DNA of 5,114 nucleotides from an archaeon (GCA_024275415.1 JAJRZD010000048.1:1-5114); one strand, 5' to 3'. Shown: positions 1 through 5,114, counted from the stretch's first letter. Notes: generated by a model not told the origin, from the sequence alone. Numbers and translations are program-made.

Positions 1-117
1 GTGCTCATCAGACGCTATGGCGCATATCTGCCCGTCAGTTACGGCTAACCCTCCGGTGACCAGTCCTGATTCAAGAAGCAGCCTTGCATTCTTGATTACA
101 AGATCCACGGAGGCCAA
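1..117 (-). CDS. N-terminal fragment of a metal-dependent cyclic amidohydrolase (dihydropyrimidinase/hydantoinase, allantoinase or dihydroorotase-like); runs off the left edge
   Basis: Hand translation of the minus strand from TTG at 117 gives MASVDLVIKNARLLLESGLVTGGLAVTDGQICAIASDEH, open to position 1 (alternative start GTG at 108). This fits the 'DLVIKNaRl...g.lAV.DG.I.AI' N-terminal beta-sandwich typical of the amidohydrolase superfamily. GGAGGA lies 6 nt upstream of the TTG. The HxH metal motif is outside the window, so the subfamily cannot be assigned. Confidence 0.8.
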   Translation of the reverse strand, partial: MASVDLVIKNARLLLESGLVTGGLAVTDGQICAIASDEH

Positions 118-120
118 AGA

Positions 121-402
121 CTATCCTCCTCCAACCGGTGGGAACAATGCCACTGCATCTCCATCTTGAAGAGAGGTGTCGTATCCATCAAGCAGTTCGA
201 TTCTTTTTCCGTTCACCATGCATGAGAAGAACCGTTTCAGCTCTTGCGTTTCGGGGTCAATGACGGTGTCCTCGAACGGTCTACCGTACTTCGATTTCAG
301 CTTTTGGAGCAGATCTCGGATATTCTCTACGTCCATCTCGATTCGGCTGGTCCCAGTGATTTCTCGCACTGTTGCAAAGAACTTGACAGTCACGTTCGCC
401 AT
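121..402 (-). CDS. moaD: MoaD/ThiS-family ubiquitin-like sulfur carrier (SAMP1-like small archaeal modifier protein)
   Basis: 93 aa with N-terminal 'VTVKFFATVREITG', internal 'MVNG' and 'LQDGDAVALFPPVGGG' ending in the diagnostic C-terminal Gly-Gly. An SD-like GAGGTG (420-415) lies upstream of the ATG. Confidence 0.93.
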   Translation of the reverse strand: MANVTVKFFATVREITGTSRIEMDVENIRDLLQKLKSKYGRPFEDTVIDPETQELKRFFSCMVNGKRIELLDGYDTSLQDGDAVALFPPVGGG

Positions 403-492
403 CCTATATCACAGCACCTCAGGAGCAAAAATACAACAGATTATAACGCTTATGACCTCTATGGTGGTGGAAGAAATCCTGGAGGCCAGTTA
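403..492. promoter_or_regulatory. Divergent promoter region with a palindromic TTATAA TATA-box candidate (441-446) and SD motifs for both genes
   Basis: AT-rich 90-nt gap between divergent starts. TTATAA reads the same on both strands, 39 nt from the moaD ATG and 47 nt from the pfkB TTG. GGAGG at 481-485 (+) and GAGGTG at 420-415 (-). Confidence 0.5.
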
Positions 493-1377
493 TTGGAGAT
501 CGTTGTTGTAGGCCATCTTAGTAGGGATCTGATAATCACTCCAAGATACCAACGCGAATCATTAGGTGGAGGAACTGCTTATGCCATGATAGCACCCAAG
601 CTTGGTGCGTTTGGCACTGGCATCATCACTCGCGTAGGCTCTGATTTCGAGCAGGAATATGTCAATTCTCTAAAGGAGTCCAATTTGGATCTGACAGGGT
701 TTCGGACAGCCGGTCCACGGACTACTCGATTCATCAATGAGTATGATGCAAAAGGCAGACGAACCCAAAGAGTGGATGCCGTTGCGCCGGAGATTCGGAT
801 GACCGACTTACAACCACATCATCTGCAAGCGAACATCATGCACTTCTCACCCTTGCTTAATGAAGTTCATACGTCTTGCATCGAGGTGGCCAGGAGGTAT
901 GGCGCTTTGGTGTCGTTGGACATTCAAGGCTACACGCGAACCGAGGAGAATGGACGGGTTGTCCCTACTACATGGGATGAGGCGTTGCAGGTTCTCCGAT
1001 ACGTCGATGTGGTGAAATGTGACACCTCCGAGCTAGAGCTTGCCATGGGCGATGGGACCGAAACTGCGCTCGTCACCAAGATGCTCGCACTTGGGCCCCG
1101 AATCGTTATCGTCACAAAGGATCAGGCTGGCTCATGCATCTATACTCGAAACTCCCAGATCGAGATACCCATGGTCTTGGCAGAGAAAATGATAGACACT
1201 ACAGGCTCCGGAGATACTTACATCATCGGATTCCTTTTGGAGTATATGCGAACTGGAGATGTGAAGCGTGCAGGTCTCTTTGGTGCTACCTGTGCATCCT
1301 ACAATCTTGAAACCGTGGGACCTTATGGTTTACCAACTAGAGCCATGGTTGAGAAAAGGATGAGTTCTTATCTATAG
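493..1377 (+). CDS. PfkB/ribokinase-family carbohydrate or nucleoside kinase (294 aa from the TTG start)
   Basis: N-terminal 'IVVVGHLSRD', 'LGGGTAY', 'RVGSDF', 'VVKCDTSEL', 'IVIVTKDQAGS' and the C-terminal PfkB signature 'DTTGSGDTYIIGF'. The true start is probably TTG 493, with GGAGG 7 nt upstream. The ORF-track start at 244 overlaps moaD antisense. Confidence 0.9.
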   Translation: MEIVVVGHLSRDLIITPRYQRESLGGGTAYAMIAPKLGAFGTGIITRVGSDFEQEYVNSLKESNLDLTGFRTAGPRTTRFINEYDAKGRRTQRVDAVAPEIRMTDLQPHHLQANIMHFSPLLNEVHTSCIEVARRYGALVSLDIQGYTRTEENGRVVPTTWDEALQVLRYVDVVKCDTSELELAMGDGTETALVTKMLALGPRIVIVTKDQAGSCIYTRNSQIEIPMVLAEKMIDTTGSGDTYIIGFLLEYMRTGDVKRAGLFGATCASYNLETVGPYGLPTRAMVEKRMSSYL

Positions 1378-1385
1378 TGATGCGT

Positions 1386-1410
1386 GGCTTGTTCAAAAAG
1401 CCTTTTCAGA
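1386..1410 (+). promoter_or_regulatory. Short hairpin GGCTT-N7-AAGCC followed by TTTT; weak terminator of pfkB, or a BRE/TATA-like element (AAAAAG-CCTTTTCA) for the peptidase gene
   Basis: 5-bp inverted repeat at 1386-1390/1398-1402 plus a T4 tract, 8 nt after the pfkB stop and about 30 nt before the next start. The two roles cannot be told apart from sequence alone. Confidence 0.25.
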
Positions 1411-1435
1411 GCCCACACCTCCTTACGAAAATGGA

Positions 1436-2629
1436 GTGAAATCGATGCTAGCAGATCTTGACGGGCTCATGGCTGAAGCAGGGGTAGATGCCATAGTCCT
1501 TGTGGGGAACGCATTCGAGGTTCCCGATATACTGTGGATGACAGGATTCAGGTCACCTGATGACGTGATAGTAGTCCACAATCGTGATGAGGAAACAATC
1601 GTAGCCTGTGCCTTTCATACCGTGGAACGAGTCAAGAAAGAAGGCTTTGTGAAGCGGACCTATGACCTGACCGACCTCTATCGAGCGTTCATGGCTGAAG
1701 GGAAACGCGCTCGAAATTATCCGGAGCGCGTCCTTGGGGATGTGCTTTCCAATGTCTTCTCAGGCAAGACAATAGGTGTCCCTGAGCATATCCCCGCATC
1801 GAATCTCCTAGCGATCCAGAAACTGGGATATGATGTGAAGCCAGTTCCAGACCTGTTGGTCGATGCCCGTGCAACAAAATCATCTCGTGAGGTCGAGATG
1901 ATAAAGAAGGCAGGCGCAGCTACCATGAGGGCGCTGAGTCAGGTGATTGAGATGATAAAGGATGCAGACATTGACGCCAATGGCAATCTATCGCACAATG
2001 GCTCCCCTCTTACTGTTGGTACGATTAAGAATGCCCTAGATCATGCCCTTTTAGATCAATGGGCAGAATCAGCTGAGGATGCCATCGTCGCGGTTGGCAC
2101 TATGGGGTTTGACTGGCATTATCTCGGCAATCCAGAAGATGTTCTAAAAGCAGGTGTGCCAATCATCATGGATGTCTTTCCGCGATTGAAACGTGAGATG
2201 TATGTTGCAGATGTTACAAGGACTGTGGTGAAAGGATCTCCTGATCCAAAGGTCAAGGAGATGTTTGATGCCGTGAAGGCAGCATCTGATGCTGTAATTG
2301 ATGCGATGACCGATGACGCAAAGATTGATGATGTGAATCTCGCCTGTTACAATACGTTGAAGAGATTTGGATTCGACTCTTCAAGATTGAATCCTGATGC
2401 AGAAGAGGGGATGACTCACAGCCTAGGACATGGTATTGGACTTGCCATCCATGAGAAGCCAAGTATGTATTCTTTGAATGACCACTTCAAAGAGGGTCAT
2501 GTTGTTGCTATTGAACCAGGTGTCTACATCAGGGCATTCGGCGGTGTCCGATTAGAGAATGACTTTGCTATCACCAAGAGCAGACCTGAGCGTCTAACAC
2601 CCGGACTAGACGATGTGATGTATCTCTAG
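1436..2629 (+). CDS. M24B-family metallopeptidase (Xaa-Pro aminopeptidase/prolidase-like) with a creatinase-type N-terminal domain
   Basis: All five pita-bread metal ligands are present: IMDVFPR, ADVTRT, HSLGHGIGLAIHEKP, IEPGVY and GGVRLEND. The start is either GTG 1436 or ATG 1445; the latter has GGAGTGA 5 nt upstream. Confidence 0.92.
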   Translation: MKSMLADLDGLMAEAGVDAIVLVGNAFEVPDILWMTGFRSPDDVIVVHNRDEETIVACAFHTVERVKKEGFVKRTYDLTDLYRAFMAEGKRARNYPERVLGDVLSNVFSGKTIGVPEHIPASNLLAIQKLGYDVKPVPDLLVDARATKSSREVEMIKKAGAATMRALSQVIEMIKDADIDANGNLSHNGSPLTVGTIKNALDHALLDQWAESAEDAIVAVGTMGFDWHYLGNPEDVLKAGVPIIMDVFPRLKREMYVADVTRTVVKGSPDPKVKEMFDAVKAASDAVIDAMTDDAKIDDVNLACYNTLKRFGFDSSRLNPDAEEGMTHSLGHGIGLAIHEKPSMYSLNDHFKEGHVVAIEPGVYIRAFGGVRLENDFAITKSRPERLTPGLDDVMYL

Positions 2630-3723
2630 GCATCAATGGAAAGAGCGTGATACGGACAAACAGAGATGCACATACCGCATCTCTGGCACTTTTCCTCATT
2701 AATGACAAATAGATTCTCCTTCTTGTCCACTGTGATGGCATCGTAGACGCATGACTTGGGACACAGTCCACATCTCGTACACTTTGCATGGTCAACTGTG
2801 GGAATACCCTTCAATTCCACTGGTTCCCGAAGGTGCTTCAACGCCTTCCCCTTGATATCTAGCACAGAGTCATAACCATGCTCGTCGAGCCAAGTGTCCA
2901 TCTCCTTGGCAATTCTCCCATAGACCGTCTGTCCTTCAAGGATTGAGGCAGTACAGACTTCTACCGCCGATGCTCCAGCCATCATGAACTCGATGGCGTC
3001 TGTGCCATGTGTGACACCCCCAACAGCAATGACTGGGAGGTTGACCGCTCTGGCGATATCAGCCACACATTTCATGGCTATCGGTCTGATCGAGGCACCG
3101 CTCATCCATCCCAATCCCTCCTCGCTCCCAAGCACAGGTTTCCCTGTTTCAATGTCTATTCTCAGGCAAGGTCCGAACGAGTTAATTGCCACGATCCCAT
3201 CGACGTACGGCGCGACCTCTTTTGCAACGGCTGCTACATCGACCTTTGGGCTCAGCTTGGCAAAGATGGGAATATCCACCGCATCACGGAGAGCCTTTGC
3301 TATCTCTGCATGACCCCCTACATAGTGGGTTGAGAATTCAAGTGCGTGTACTCCGGCAGCTTCGATTTTGGGGGCAATTTCAGAAACCTCCGCCGGTGTG
3401 TACCCCAGACTGGCTATGAGCGGAAGGGTCGAACTCAGAGCAATAGCATACTCTCGTTCAAGCCATTGTTCCAGCGGAATCTCACTCCAAAGCTCAGCGT
3501 TGAGGATGCCTCTGCGTGAACCTGTCCGTCCTTCTTCTATGGCTGCCATGTTGGGCTTGGGCACATCTGCAGGCCTGATGCTGACAGTCTTGGCAACAAG
3601 ACCTCCAGCCCCTCCCGCAGCTGCATTTAACAGGGTCATCCCATCCCGAGATGTGGGACCTGCAGCGGTAAGCACTGGGTTCCTGAATCTGAGTCCTGCA
3701 ATCTCAACCTCAAGATTGGTCAT
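2626..3723 (-). CDS. Dihydropyrimidine/dihydroorotate dehydrogenase-like FMN TIM-barrel protein (PreA-like) with a C-terminal 2x[4Fe-4S] ferredoxin domain and a non-canonical active-site loop
   Basis: FMN-barrel motifs 'FRNPVLTAAGP', 'AKT', 'LNAELWSE', 'AKLSP', 'AINS', 'GWMSGASIRP' and 'IAVGGV...AIEFMMAGASAVEVCT'. C-terminal CxxCxxCxxxC twice (C315-C325, C346-C356). The catalytic loop reads EFSTHYVGG rather than ELNxSCP. Confidence 0.88.
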   Translation of the reverse strand: MTNLEVEIAGLRFRNPVLTAAGPTSRDGMTLLNAAAGGAGGLVAKTVSIRPADVPKPNMAAIEEGRTGSRRGILNAELWSEIPLEQWLEREYAIALSSTLPLIASLGYTPAEVSEIAPKIEAAGVHALEFSTHYVGGHAEIAKALRDAVDIPIFAKLSPKVDVAAVAKEVAPYVDGIVAINSFGPCLRIDIETGKPVLGSEEGLGWMSGASIRPIAMKCVADIARAVNLPVIAVGGVTHGTDAIEFMMAGASAVEVCTASILEGQTVYGRIAKEMDTWLDEHGYDSVLDIKGKALKHLREPVELKGIPTVDHAKCTRCGLCPKSCVYDAITVDKKENLFVINEEKCQRCGMCISVCPYHALSIDA

Positions 3724-3772
3724 GTCCTCGGCTACTTTGCACTAGATGATAAGGATTCCTCAACTATGATGC

Positions 3773-3793
3773 TGTTATCTTCTTTGAATAACA
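3773..3793. promoter_or_regulatory. Inverted repeat TGTTAT-N9-ATAACA in the AOR to DPD-like intergenic region; candidate operator or RNA hairpin
   Basis: Perfect 6-bp arms at 3773-3778 and 3788-3793, about 50-70 nt upstream of the ATG at 3723. A TTATCA TATA-like box lies at 3752-3747 on the minus strand. Confidence 0.3.
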
Positions 3794-3829
3794 ACAGACT
3801 CAACATCGCGGTTCGATGACACTTCTGTT

Positions 3830-5114
3830 CTAGTTTGCAAGCATGTTCCTCTTCATCAGATCCTGCACCACAAACTCAAGTCCGAGGTTTTCAAGTTTGT
3901 CCTTCTTCGGATATCCAGTTTCCTTGTCACACCCTCTGTACTCGTAGTACTCGTCCAACATGATGTCAAGGTCAGGCAGTCCCCCTTTCGAGGGGCCTGT
4001 GGGCATCGGTTCTGAGAGGAGCCGTGGTGGAAGGTTCTCATCTTTTCTTGTGACCCCAAGCCGGTGGTTGTAAGCACGTCGAAGGTGACTGATCCTCTCC
4101 GCGGCAGTCTTGACGAATTTGAGGTCTGACCATTCACTCATCCCTGTGAGTGGTGCGATGACGCCTGCGAAGGTCTCGTAATAGTAAACTGGAGGCCACA
4201 TCACTGCATACTTGCAGATGACCGCAGAGTCAGTCAATGCATAGAGGTCTTCCATGTCCTTGACGAGTTCACCTTTGTGCGCCGGATTCATGATCTCAAG
4301 GATTTCTTTTGCCTTGTCCTTTCCGAACCGTTCAATTGCAATCTCTGGATAACCAAGCTCCTCAAGACTGGAGAGGCTTCTCAAGTGGTCTGCTCCCCTG
4401 ACATTCGTGGCATAGGTCAGACCGATTGACTGGTGTGCTCTTGGATCCTGACCTGACGCTTCGAGACCTTTCACATGGACTGCGTATTTCCACGCATCAC
4501 CGCCGATAATCTCCGCCGCTTTTCGAGTCCCTTGAGCAAGTATCTTCCCAAAGCCCTCCTGTTTTGCAATCATCTCGACAAGGCGTGCCATCGATTCGTG
4601 ATTGCCCCAGCTCAGATCCAGACCATCTGTATCCTTCTCAGTGATGATTCCTTTTTCCCATAGTTCCAGCGCAAAACCAATGGTCTTTCCGCAGGAGATA
4701 GTGTCCATCCCGAGGAGGTCACATCTCTTGCCCATATGGAATACTGACTCCACGTCGCTATTCAGACAGTTGGAACCAAATGCCATCAGGGTTTCGTACT
4801 CGGGACCGCCAATCGGACCGGTGGCGTATTTTCCTTCCCGGACTCTGATTATGTACTTGCATCCTACTGCACAGCCATGGCAGGCCTCCTGTCCGATACG
4901 ATACCTCTCCGCGATGATCTCGGGACCTATGGAATCAGCATCCTCATAGAACCCGGTCCAGTGGTTCTTTGTCGGGAGTCGTCCTATCTCGTTGATTATC
5001 GCCACTAAGTCAGTAGTCCCATACTTTCTCAGAGAGCCCAACGAGTCTGTCCACAATGGATCCCGAATCCTTCCCATCTCCACCTCATTGGCTTCAAGGT
5101 ACTTGTCCATATCA
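3830..5114 (-). CDS. aor: Tungsten-containing aldehyde:ferredoxin oxidoreductase (AOR/WOR) family protein, C-terminal (AFOR_C) part; the 5' end lies outside the window
   Basis: Motifs 'LPTKN', [4Fe-4S] 'CHGCAVGC' plus a distal Cys in 'DSAVIC', 'GPEYET', pterin-binding 'DLLGMDTIS', 'VKGLE..QDPR', 'RGADH' and 'MLDEYYEYRG..ETGYP'. The frame is open to the window edge (codon GAT precedes the ATG at 5110), so the ~200-aa N-terminal domain is missing. The gene symbol is family-level only; the substrate subfamily is unknown. Confidence 0.95.
   Translation of the reverse strand, partial: DMDKYLEANEVEMGRIRDPLWTDSLGSLRKYGTTDLVAIINEIGRLPTKNHWTGFYEDADSIGPEIIAERYRIGQEACHGCAVGCKYIIRVREGKYATGPIGGPEYETLMAFGSNCLNSDVESVFHMGKRCDLLGMDTISCGKTIGFALELWEKGIITEKDTDGLDLSWGNHESMARLVEMIAKQEGFGKILAQGTRKAAEIIGGDAWKYAVHVKGLEASGQDPRAHQSIGLTYATNVRGADHLRSLSSLEELGYPEIAIERFGKDKAKEILEIMNPAHKGELVKDMEDLYALTDSAVICKYAVMWPPVYYYETFAGVIAPLTGMSEWSDLKFVKTAAERISHLRRAYNHRLGVTRKDENLPPRLLSEPMPTGPSKGGLPDLDIMLDEYYEYRGCDKETGYPKKDKLENLGLEFVVQDLMKRNMLAN

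Follow-up and report, generated by a model that had tools for sequence, protein, structure and literature searches.

A conserved Thorarchaeota gene island joining a UacX-like reductase to tungsten aldehyde oxidoreductases: a candidate reductive purine pathway

The window and its gene island

The window analysed here is a stretch of archaeal DNA of 5,114 nucleotides (GCA_024275415.1 JAJRZD010000048.1:1-5114), in which one gene encodes a flavo-iron–sulfur reductase resembling UacX, the 2,8-dioxopurine reductase of clostridia, downstream of a tungsten aldehyde oxidoreductase (AOR) gene. It is the complete 5114-bp contig C27 of a 3.5-Mb, 127-contig Thorarchaeota metagenome-assembled genome (MAG) of the Asgard archaea, with a completeness of 92.9%. 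Gene content was established from a listing of open reading frames (ORFs) and from Pfam and NCBIfam scans; model scores are given below in bits against the cut-off of the model. The initial annotation had named five gene types, namely a cyclic amidohydrolase, MoaD, a PfkB kinase, a protein like dihydropyrimidine dehydrogenase (DPD), which is the UacX-like protein of this text, and a tungsten AOR. All five are real, with the corrections that the amidohydrolase and the AOR are cut by the contig ends and that PfkB starts at 493, since the listed ORF from 244 runs over moaD; an M24 gene at 1445-2629 had been omitted. The features are as follows.

1..117, minus strand: cyclic amidohydrolase of the allantoinase/dihydroorotase/hydantoinase type, first 39 codons, with a TTG start at 117; the remainder lies on contig C46
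121..402, minus strand: MoaD/SAMP1-like ubiquitin-fold sulfur carrier, 93 aa, with a C-terminal GG (PF02597, TIGR01687, NF041918)
403..492, no strand: divergent moaD-pfkB intergenic region, with GGAGG at 481-485, 7 nt ahead of the pfkB TTG
493..1377, plus strand: PfkB-family sugar/nucleoside kinase, 294 aa, with a TTG start at 493 (PF00294 and reading of the sequence)
1445..2629, plus strand: M24 metallohydrolase, prolidase-like, Creatinase_N plus Peptidase_M24 (Pfam scan and PDB match)
2626..3723, minus strand: UacX-like flavo-iron–sulfur reductase, 365 aa (PF01180 FMN DHO_dh TIM barrel plus C-terminal 2x[4Fe-4S])
2656..2781, minus strand: two CxxCxxCxxxC motifs, C315-C325 and C346-C356, as [4Fe-4S] ligands (8/8 Cys invariant in alignment A3)
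3322..3339, minus strand: family signature E129-F-S-T-H-Y134 (alignment to DPD and family members)
3830..5114, minus strand: tungsten AOR, here AOR1, C-terminal 427 codons (AFOR_C 407 bits); the N-terminus lies on contig C105

The moaD stop lies 3 nt short of the amidohydrolase start, and 106 nt separate the AOR1 stop from the UacX-like start downstream of it. The convergent M24 and UacX-like genes share their last 4 nt (2626-2629), leaving no space for an intergenic terminator.

The ends of C27 are identical over 141 bp to C46 (left) and C105 (right), and C105 is joined likewise to C2. This supports the order C46-C27-C105-C2 as joins of the assembly graph, and the order is backed by synteny in relatives. 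At one end the joined order reads DadD/TRZ-ATZ-like amidohydrolase, polyferredoxin Fd1 > AOR1 > UacX-like gene, PfkB > M24; at the other it reads MoaD > cyclic amidohydrolase > polyferredoxin Fd2 > AOR2 > MvhD > MvhG > MvhA. The rebuilt locus has the same arrangement as that of a fully annotated relative of the same genus. The window makes up the middle of an island of about 20 kb that is conserved in archaea: its gene order is kept in 20 Thorarchaeaceae contexts and its core is found again in other archaeal phyla; an orthologue of the UacX-like gene is present in 23 of the 24 Thorarchaeaceae genomes sampled, from 16 genera. The gene clustering is far beyond chance. The initial annotation had proposed a locus for N-heterocycle reduction and ring hydrolysis tied to a tungsten AOR, ferredoxin and MoaD, and the conserved order together with the recurrence of the core in other phyla bears out its conservation. 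A description of such an island was not found in the literature on Thorarchaeota and AOR, and a search of sequencing runs with the complete window, RNA data included, came up empty.

The UacX-like reductase, its relatives and their neighbours

The UacX-like protein consists of an FMN-binding DHO_dh barrel fused to a 2x[4Fe-4S] domain, and has no FAD/NAD(P)H domain. It falls below the cut-off of both the PreA model NF006183 (176.8 vs 335) and the PyrD model NF005574 (170 vs 269). In the alignment with pig DPD, the FMN-contacting stretches and two Asn-containing substrate-site stretches are kept, the stretches of K45, N75 and N181 being aligned. The N-x-S-C-P-H motif, which in DPD and class-1 dihydroorotate dehydrogenase (DHOD) lies on a mobile loop of about 13 residues carrying the catalytic Cys, is replaced together with that loop by the short E-F-S-T-H-Y. 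The PreA and PyrD proteins of the same genome retain the SCPH motif. The non-standard active site that had been suspected for this protein is thus confirmed, and, judged by sequence, the protein is neither PyrD nor PreA. It has the fold and the FMN and Fe–S cofactors in common with the PreA/PreT DPD, mammalian DPD and the clostridial PydAc; it differs from PreA and DPD in that it has neither the catalytic-Cys loop nor a PreT partner, and in that its host genome has a canonical PreA of its own.

An exhaustive profile-free search returned 247 cluster representatives at E<=1e-30. Alignment of 103 full-length representatives revealed that the nearest have E-x-S-T-H-Y or a near variant and that distant members have a still shorter “VSY” loop, while true PreA and PyrD types have SCPH. 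The pattern E-x-S-[T/L/C]-H-Y was found in 84 of 89 family members, including that of Clostridium perfringens. A pattern scan of a one-genome-per-species collection, derived from the 5-sequence alignment A2, gave at least 576 matches confirmed by tblastn. Archaeal hosts are Hadarchaeota, Undinarchaeota, Thermoproteota, Baldrarchaeota, Thorarchaeota and Thermoplasmata; bacterial hosts are Chloroflexota, Bacillota (with the cultured C. perfringens, C. sardiniense and Desnuesiella) and Acidobacteriota. Public annotations call the family members “4Fe-4S binding protein” or “dihydroorotate dehydrogenase”.

The functional anchor of the family comes from clostridia. UacX of C. difficile (UniProt Q181U4) reduces 2,8-dioxopurine (“yanthine”) in the reductive uric-acid pathway and is a PydA homologue without the FAD domain that stands in for E. 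coli YgfK (Li et al., Life Metab 2025, PMC12507026); this pathway is also described by Liu et al. 2025 (bioRxiv 10.1101/2025.04.24.650524). Together with SsnA and reduced methyl viologen, the C. difficile enzyme converts 2,8-dioxopurine to ureidomethylhydantoin and 5-ureido-dihydrouracil, and the reduction step was seen only when coupled to SsnA, for which the authors blame possibly unfavourable thermodynamics (PMC12507026). That study makes no mention of archaea or tungsten, and its distribution survey covers bacteria only.

The C. perfringens member of the family is 50% identical to the window protein, and both carry the E-x-S-T-H-Y signature. Its gene belongs to a run encoding XdhC, a sigma-54 regulator, diaminopropionate ammonia-lyase (YgeX), YgeY, a D-aminoacylase-like amidohydrolase, SsnA, a xanthine permease (PbuX), the family member, a D-hydantoinase (HyuA) and a Se-dependent xanthine dehydrogenase (XDH). 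This is the layout of the “uricolytic” cluster of PMC12507026, with the family member at the position of UacX. The named C. difficile UacX was not found among the best 120 homologues of the C. perfringens protein. With the C. perfringens protein as the point of comparison, the position of the clostridial orthologue, the signature and the identity of about 50% suggest, by homology, that the archaeal protein of the window belongs to the UacX family. A purine-derived heterocycle was among the substrates considered in the initial annotation, and this option has gained ground, as the nearest functionally anchored relatives lie in clostridial urate/2,8-dioxopurine clusters.

Like C. difficile UacX, the window protein combines an FMN barrel with a C-terminal 2x[4Fe-4S] domain, lacks the FAD/NAD(P)H domain, would use a low-potential donor and comes from a family that keeps company with SsnA-type and hydantoinase-type amidohydrolases, the island itself holding a cyclic amidohydrolase. 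It differs in that the archaeal clade forms a separate, well-supported branch and that the substrate of the window protein is a prediction. Furthermore, the archaeal genes stand in an operon behind a polyferredoxin and a tungsten AOR and not near a Se/Mo-XDH, and in Thorarchaeaceae neither XDH nor YgeX was found and no SsnA gene is adjacent to the UacX-like gene.

Neighbouring genes were clustered for 80 family loci, and 100 loci were then scored with marker proteins. Over these 100 loci, two partners were commonest in every lineage: a cyclic amidohydrolase and an amidohydrolase of the SsnA type, whose gene mostly lies immediately upstream. A polyferredoxin > AOR pair lies directly ahead of the UacX-like gene in Thermoproteota (MAGs labelled Bathyarchaeia, Korarchaeia and Nitrososphaeria), Baldrarchaeota, another Asgard family and Thorarchaeaceae. 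The fuller Thermoproteota pattern comprises SsnA, a PnrA-like nucleoside-binding ABC system and the order ferredoxin > AOR1 > UacX-like gene > ferredoxin > (MoaD) > AOR1' > cyclic amidohydrolase > AOR2; in the cluster scored, the amidohydrolase adjacent to the UacX-like gene is a true SsnA (555 vs 444). Amidohydrolase, AOR and MoaD, which had been grouped with PfkB in the initial annotation, hence recur across phyla, and PfkB is kept in place only within Thorarchaeaceae.

Two further kinds of locus were observed. At an archaeal locus of GCA_046761105.1 (L044:13154-17077), an amidohydrolase gene is followed by a UacX-like gene, near genes for XdhC, a MocA-like protein, MoCF biosynthesis and a MOT1 molybdate transporter; the locus further includes ThiS/MoaD and an XDH-family enzyme of three subunits, making it an archaeal version that keeps the molybdenum hydroxylase. 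Many Anaerolineae (Chloroflexota; loci L074, L096, L100 and L125) have SsnA directly upstream of the UacX-like gene. Chloroflexota are said to be without YgfK and UacX and to use an F420-type reductase (Li et al., PMC12507026); this statement and the loci seen here may concern different subgroups.

The maximum-likelihood tree placed 19 of 19 AOR-linked UacX-like proteins, from Asgard archaea and Thermoproteota, in one clade with a Shimodaira–Hasegawa-like approximate likelihood ratio (SH-aLRT) support of 99. The clade also holds three members without a detected flanking AOR, one of them on a 3-kb contig, and stands apart from two others, one of Hadarchaeota and one that is largely bacterial and contains the XDH-linked members. 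In the AOR tree, three orthogroups, AOR1, AOR1' and AOR2 (support 96-100), are common to the Asgard and Thermoproteota clusters, and the other AOR paralogues of the own genome in the tree (n=4) all fall outside them. Co-loss was also seen, as a Thorarchaeaceae genome (G019) and a genome from outside the family (G025) have neither the UacX-like gene nor an AOR1 orthologue.

Tungsten AORs, amidohydrolases and accompanying genes

Polyferredoxin Fd1 (177 aa, on C105) ends about where AOR1 begins and is translationally coupled to it, and the Cys patterns of the polyferredoxins correspond to four clusters. The gaps between ferredoxin and AOR genes range from -4 to +4 nt (21 loci), and those between AOR and UacX-like genes mostly from -17 to +100 nt; in several phyla the latter two overlap. 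The full-length AOR1 orthologue of the same genus has both AFOR_N and AFOR_C, and scores 425 bits to 9mqx and 403 to AorB (8c0z). AOR1 and AOR2 are nearest to genuine aldehyde-oxidising AORs, namely 9mqx, Aromatoleum AorB (8c0z) and Pyrococcus AOR (1aor), at 376-430 bits. Alignment to the solved structures (9mqx, 8c0z) showed that the CxxCxxxC, EYE and RG-x-H stretches are retained; the latter two contain what we take to be the active-site Glu and His residues of P. furiosus AOR. Since the Fe–S cysteines and both of these stretches are kept, the altered AOR active site postulated earlier is not upheld.

In AorABC of Aromatoleum aromaticum and WorSL-ABC of gut bacteria, a tungsten AOR is combined with a polyferredoxin “nanowire” and a terminal redox module, and recent work has shown such wires ending in differing redox modules (PMC6365974, PMC10413684, PMC12318220). 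The island shares with them the gene order polyferredoxin, tungsten AOR, flavoprotein with start/stop overlaps. It differs in its third gene, which encodes a PreA/UacX-type FMN/Fe–S reductase, and neither the FAD/NAD+ module AorC nor a Bfu-type WorABC. A two-chain complex prediction of the UacX-like protein with Fd1 (alignments A3 and A4) returned a score of 0.00, which gives no answer and is evidence neither way. Elsewhere in the same genome (C28:18836-25120), an AOR1' orthologue and a polyferredoxin lie beside glutamate dehydrogenase and class IV aminotransferase genes. This amino-acid catabolic setting fits amino-acid-derived aldehydes as an electron source.

The full-length cyclic amidohydrolase of the own genome narrowly misses the specific model TIGR03178 (352 vs 357.85), falls below TIGR02033 (324 vs 393) and passes the generic pyrC_multi model TIGR00857 (304 vs 279), hence no specific equivalog. 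Its metal ligands (HxH, Lys, His, His, Asp) are intact. On C46, the Fd2 gene has a 4-nt overlap with the amidohydrolase gene on one side and with the AOR2 gene on the other. The enzyme resembles HyuA/D-hydantoinase, allantoinase and dihydroorotase in its binuclear-metal ligand set, its length of about 450 aa and its place beside a ring reductase; it differs in being about equally similar to all three models. In Hadarchaeota, Thermoproteota and Asgard archaea, the archaeal group to which it belongs occurs together with UacX-like genes. NCBIfam scores set the DadD-like protein of Thorarchaeota apart from SsnA, and the archaeal cyclic amidohydrolase apart from HyuA, although single-linkage clustering had joined each of these pairs. 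At the outer end of the joined island, a few kb past the DadD-like gene, C2:98-853 encodes an adenylosuccinate-lyase-like C-terminal fragment (purine metabolism).

The MoaD-like protein, whose sequence ends in VGGG, passes both TIGR01687 (81.8 vs 49.5) and the SAMP1 model NF041918 (64.7 vs 60), and MoaD-like genes recur within the AOR-linked clusters of other phyla. Downstream of Fd2-AOR2 and on the same strand, C46:3958-6655 carries MvhD, MvhG and MvhA-like [NiFe]-hydrogenase genes, and several Thorarchaeaceae contexts likewise show marker matches to MvhD and/or MvhA next to AOR2. The arrangement points to an AOR module with a link to H2, as opposed to the usual Mvh-Hdr pairing. Just past the hydrogenase genes, C46:2859-3733 encodes a toxin–antitoxin-like pair of a nucleotidyltransferase (Polbeta/MNT) and a HepT-like RNase.

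PfkB passes PF00294 (87.7 vs 25.8) and is far under the cut-off of every specific NCBIfam equivalog; DTTGSGD is kept, and NxxE reads NEVH. The best PDB match of the M24 protein is the Pyrococcus Xaa-Pro dipeptidase 1wy2 (89 bits), and the usual metal-ligand stretches are conserved in the alignment. Both genes occupy the island position only within Thorarchaeaceae, and for that reason their link to the pathway is weak. Both appear to be Thorarchaeaceae-specific passengers that have at most side tasks, such as handling of the ribose moiety or late amide cleavage.

A candidate reductive purine pathway and its alternatives

On balance, we lean towards the interpretation that the island encodes the reductive purine pathway in an archaeal, tungsten-linked form, which would break down a purine-type N-heterocycle by reduction and hydrolysis. 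A purine base would first be supplied, possibly by the neighbouring DadD/TRZ-ATZ-type deaminase. By homology, the UacX-like enzyme would reduce the ring at its FMN with low-potential electrons delivered through the two [4Fe-4S] clusters. Gene order and gene overlaps point to the co-transcribed Fd1 and tungsten AOR1 as the source of these electrons, from aldehyde oxidation at about -580 mV, with the UacX-like protein taking the place of the FAD subunit AorC in the order polyferredoxin–AOR–flavoprotein. We favor AOR1/Fd1 as a dedicated low-potential feed to the reductase because of this aorABC-like order and because AOR-polyferredoxin wires are known to have differing end modules. The reduced ring may then be opened by amidohydrolases: the MoaD-linked cyclic amidohydrolase, which is coupled to Fd2-AOR2, and possibly an SsnA-type enzyme, which is adjacent in Thermoproteota and located elsewhere in the own genome. 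MoaD, as is typical of its family, would support synthesis of the pterin cofactor of the AORs.

Several findings weigh against this interpretation. No XDH-family domain was detected in any of 31 Thorarchaeaceae genomes, nor in the own genome at its 92.9% completeness. YgeX was not found in the Thorarchaeaceae search (best match 55 bits), and the match to a YgeY-like M20 protein is weak (173 vs 321). The SsnA-like gene of the own genome scores 387 vs 444 and lies on C80 in an unrelated context, among genes for caspase-like, HTH and HEAT proteins and an Amidohydro_2 protein, and the amidohydrolase next to the UacX-like gene in Thorarchaeaceae is DadD-like, not SsnA. The cyclic amidohydrolase, by its TIGR02033 score, is no HyuA orthologue. 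The Thorarchaeaceae pathway thus looks incomplete, and in view of the gaps at XDH, YgeX, SsnA and YgeY the substrate may not be 2,8-dioxopurine. In addition, the window protein and the clostridial cluster member share only about 50% identity, the likeness to Q181U4 is read indirectly, and the function of the AOR-linked clade is predicted by homology. The distance between AOR1 and the UacX-like gene is 0.4-2 kb in some Thorarchaeaceae genera, and three AOR orthogroups exceed what a simple electron donor would need.

A more specific form of the proposal is that Fd1, AOR1 and the UacX-like protein are hard-wired into a single complex, a “nanowire” of the AorAB type that ends in a new module for heterocycle reduction and would couple aldehyde oxidation directly to purine dearomatisation in Asgard archaea and Thermoproteota; the sister amidohydrolase-Fd2-AOR2-MvhDGA unit would be tied to H2. 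We put this forward tentatively, with clearly less confidence than the pathway itself. If true, it would amount to a Stickland-like use of nucleobases as electron sinks, in Thorarchaeaceae in which no XDH-family enzyme was found.

Among the alternatives, the one that survives best, although we consider it unlikely, is that the cluster-specific AORs replace the molybdenum hydroxylase. They would then perform purine (de)hydroxylation, including the XdhD/DOPDH task of converting urate to 2,8-dioxopurine, with the polyferredoxins exchanging electrons with UacX or ferredoxin. In archaeal clusters, two or three polyferredoxin-AOR pairs take the place of the one or two Se-XDH genes of bacterial clusters, and this idea would also accommodate the lack of XDH-family genes in Thorarchaeaceae and the co-inheritance of the AOR orthogroups with UacX across phyla. 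Molybdenum aldehyde oxidases accept N-heterocycles as well as aldehydes, and AORs are able to run reductively. However, AOR1 and AOR2 are nearest to bona fide aldehyde-oxidising AORs with active-site stretches kept, and the own AOR1' orthologue lies in an amino-acid/aldehyde context. XDH-family genes are also present in three of five AOR-linked Thermoproteota or Baldrarchaeota genomes, none of them reported inside the clusters. To our knowledge, no AOR-family enzyme acts on an N-heterocycle.

A second alternative, which we regard as quite unlikely, is a generic redox module: polyferredoxin, AOR1 and the UacX-like protein would form an AorABC-type oxidoreductase delivering electrons to pyridine nucleotide or another small acceptor, and the amidohydrolases, PfkB and M24 would be unrelated. 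The gene order is the same as that of aorABC, the amino-acid catabolic context of AOR1' would suit such a module, and PfkB and M24 are indeed not conserved beyond Thorarchaeaceae. In contrast, the UacX-like family pairs with SsnA-type and cyclic amidohydrolases in the AOR-free Hadarchaeota, Chloroflexota and Bacillota as well, and the cyclic amidohydrolase is translationally coupled to Fd2-AOR2 and recurs in the Thermoproteota clusters. The UacX-like protein, moreover, has no nucleotide-binding domain.

We judge improbable, placing it after both of these, a ferredoxin-linked reductive pyrimidine pathway, in which the DPD-like protein reduces the base, the amidohydrolase opens the ring and AOR oxidises the semialdehyde. 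The fold, the FMN site and the two substrate-site Asn stretches align with DPD, the amidohydrolase scores on dihydropyrimidinase and dihydroorotase models, and a ferredoxin-dependent clostridial DPD (PydAc) exists according to what is cited in PMC12507026. However, the genome already encodes a canonical PreA (436.5 vs 335) followed by a CoA-acylating methylmalonate-semialdehyde dehydrogenase (526 vs 448) at C45:1231-4018, and a canonical dihydropyrimidinase (501 vs 393) at C8:4848-6239; the MAG thus seems to possess, in addition, a standard reductive route for pyrimidines. The whole family lacks the catalytic Cys loop, the sole assayed protein assigned to the family acts on 2,8-dioxopurine, and the family neighbours SsnA, xanthine permease, XDH and PnrA-like binding protein are purine markers. 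No ureidopropionase gene lies within the island. The scheme offered at first, from DPD through dihydropyrimidinase and ureidohydrolase to AOR acting on malonate semialdehyde, is therefore not supported.

That the amidohydrolase and the DHOD-like protein are the PyrC and PyrD of pyrimidine biosynthesis can be dismissed as barely credible: the amidohydrolase passes pyrC_multi and a DHO_dh Pfam domain is present, but the window protein misses the PyrD cut-off and has no catalytic Cys, and the genome has its own PyrD (320 vs 269) with an adjacent PyrK (267 vs 224) on C43 and a separate PyrC-like gene (326 vs 279) on C10, so that the island genes are not its only PyrC and PyrD, unless the C43 and C10 genes are contamination.

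The preferred reading, a tungsten-linked reductive purine pathway, bears on the biology of both the reductase family and its archaeal hosts. The reductive uric-acid/2,8-dioxopurine pathway was worked out only in 2025, and our results suggest a wide distribution of its key dearomatising reductase in archaea too, with Hadarchaeota, Thermoproteota and Asgard archaea among the hosts. The reductase gene of one old clade stands in an operon behind tungsten AORs and not with a Mo/Se xanthine dehydrogenase. The E-x-S-T-H-Y signature tells these reductases from PyrD and PreA. The island also provides a candidate new end module for AOR-polyferredoxin wires and a testable function for a subgroup of AORs in sediment archaea, which have many AOR genes lacking an assigned role. 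For Asgard archaea, it may represent a route by which nucleobases serve as carbon and nitrogen sources or as electron sinks.

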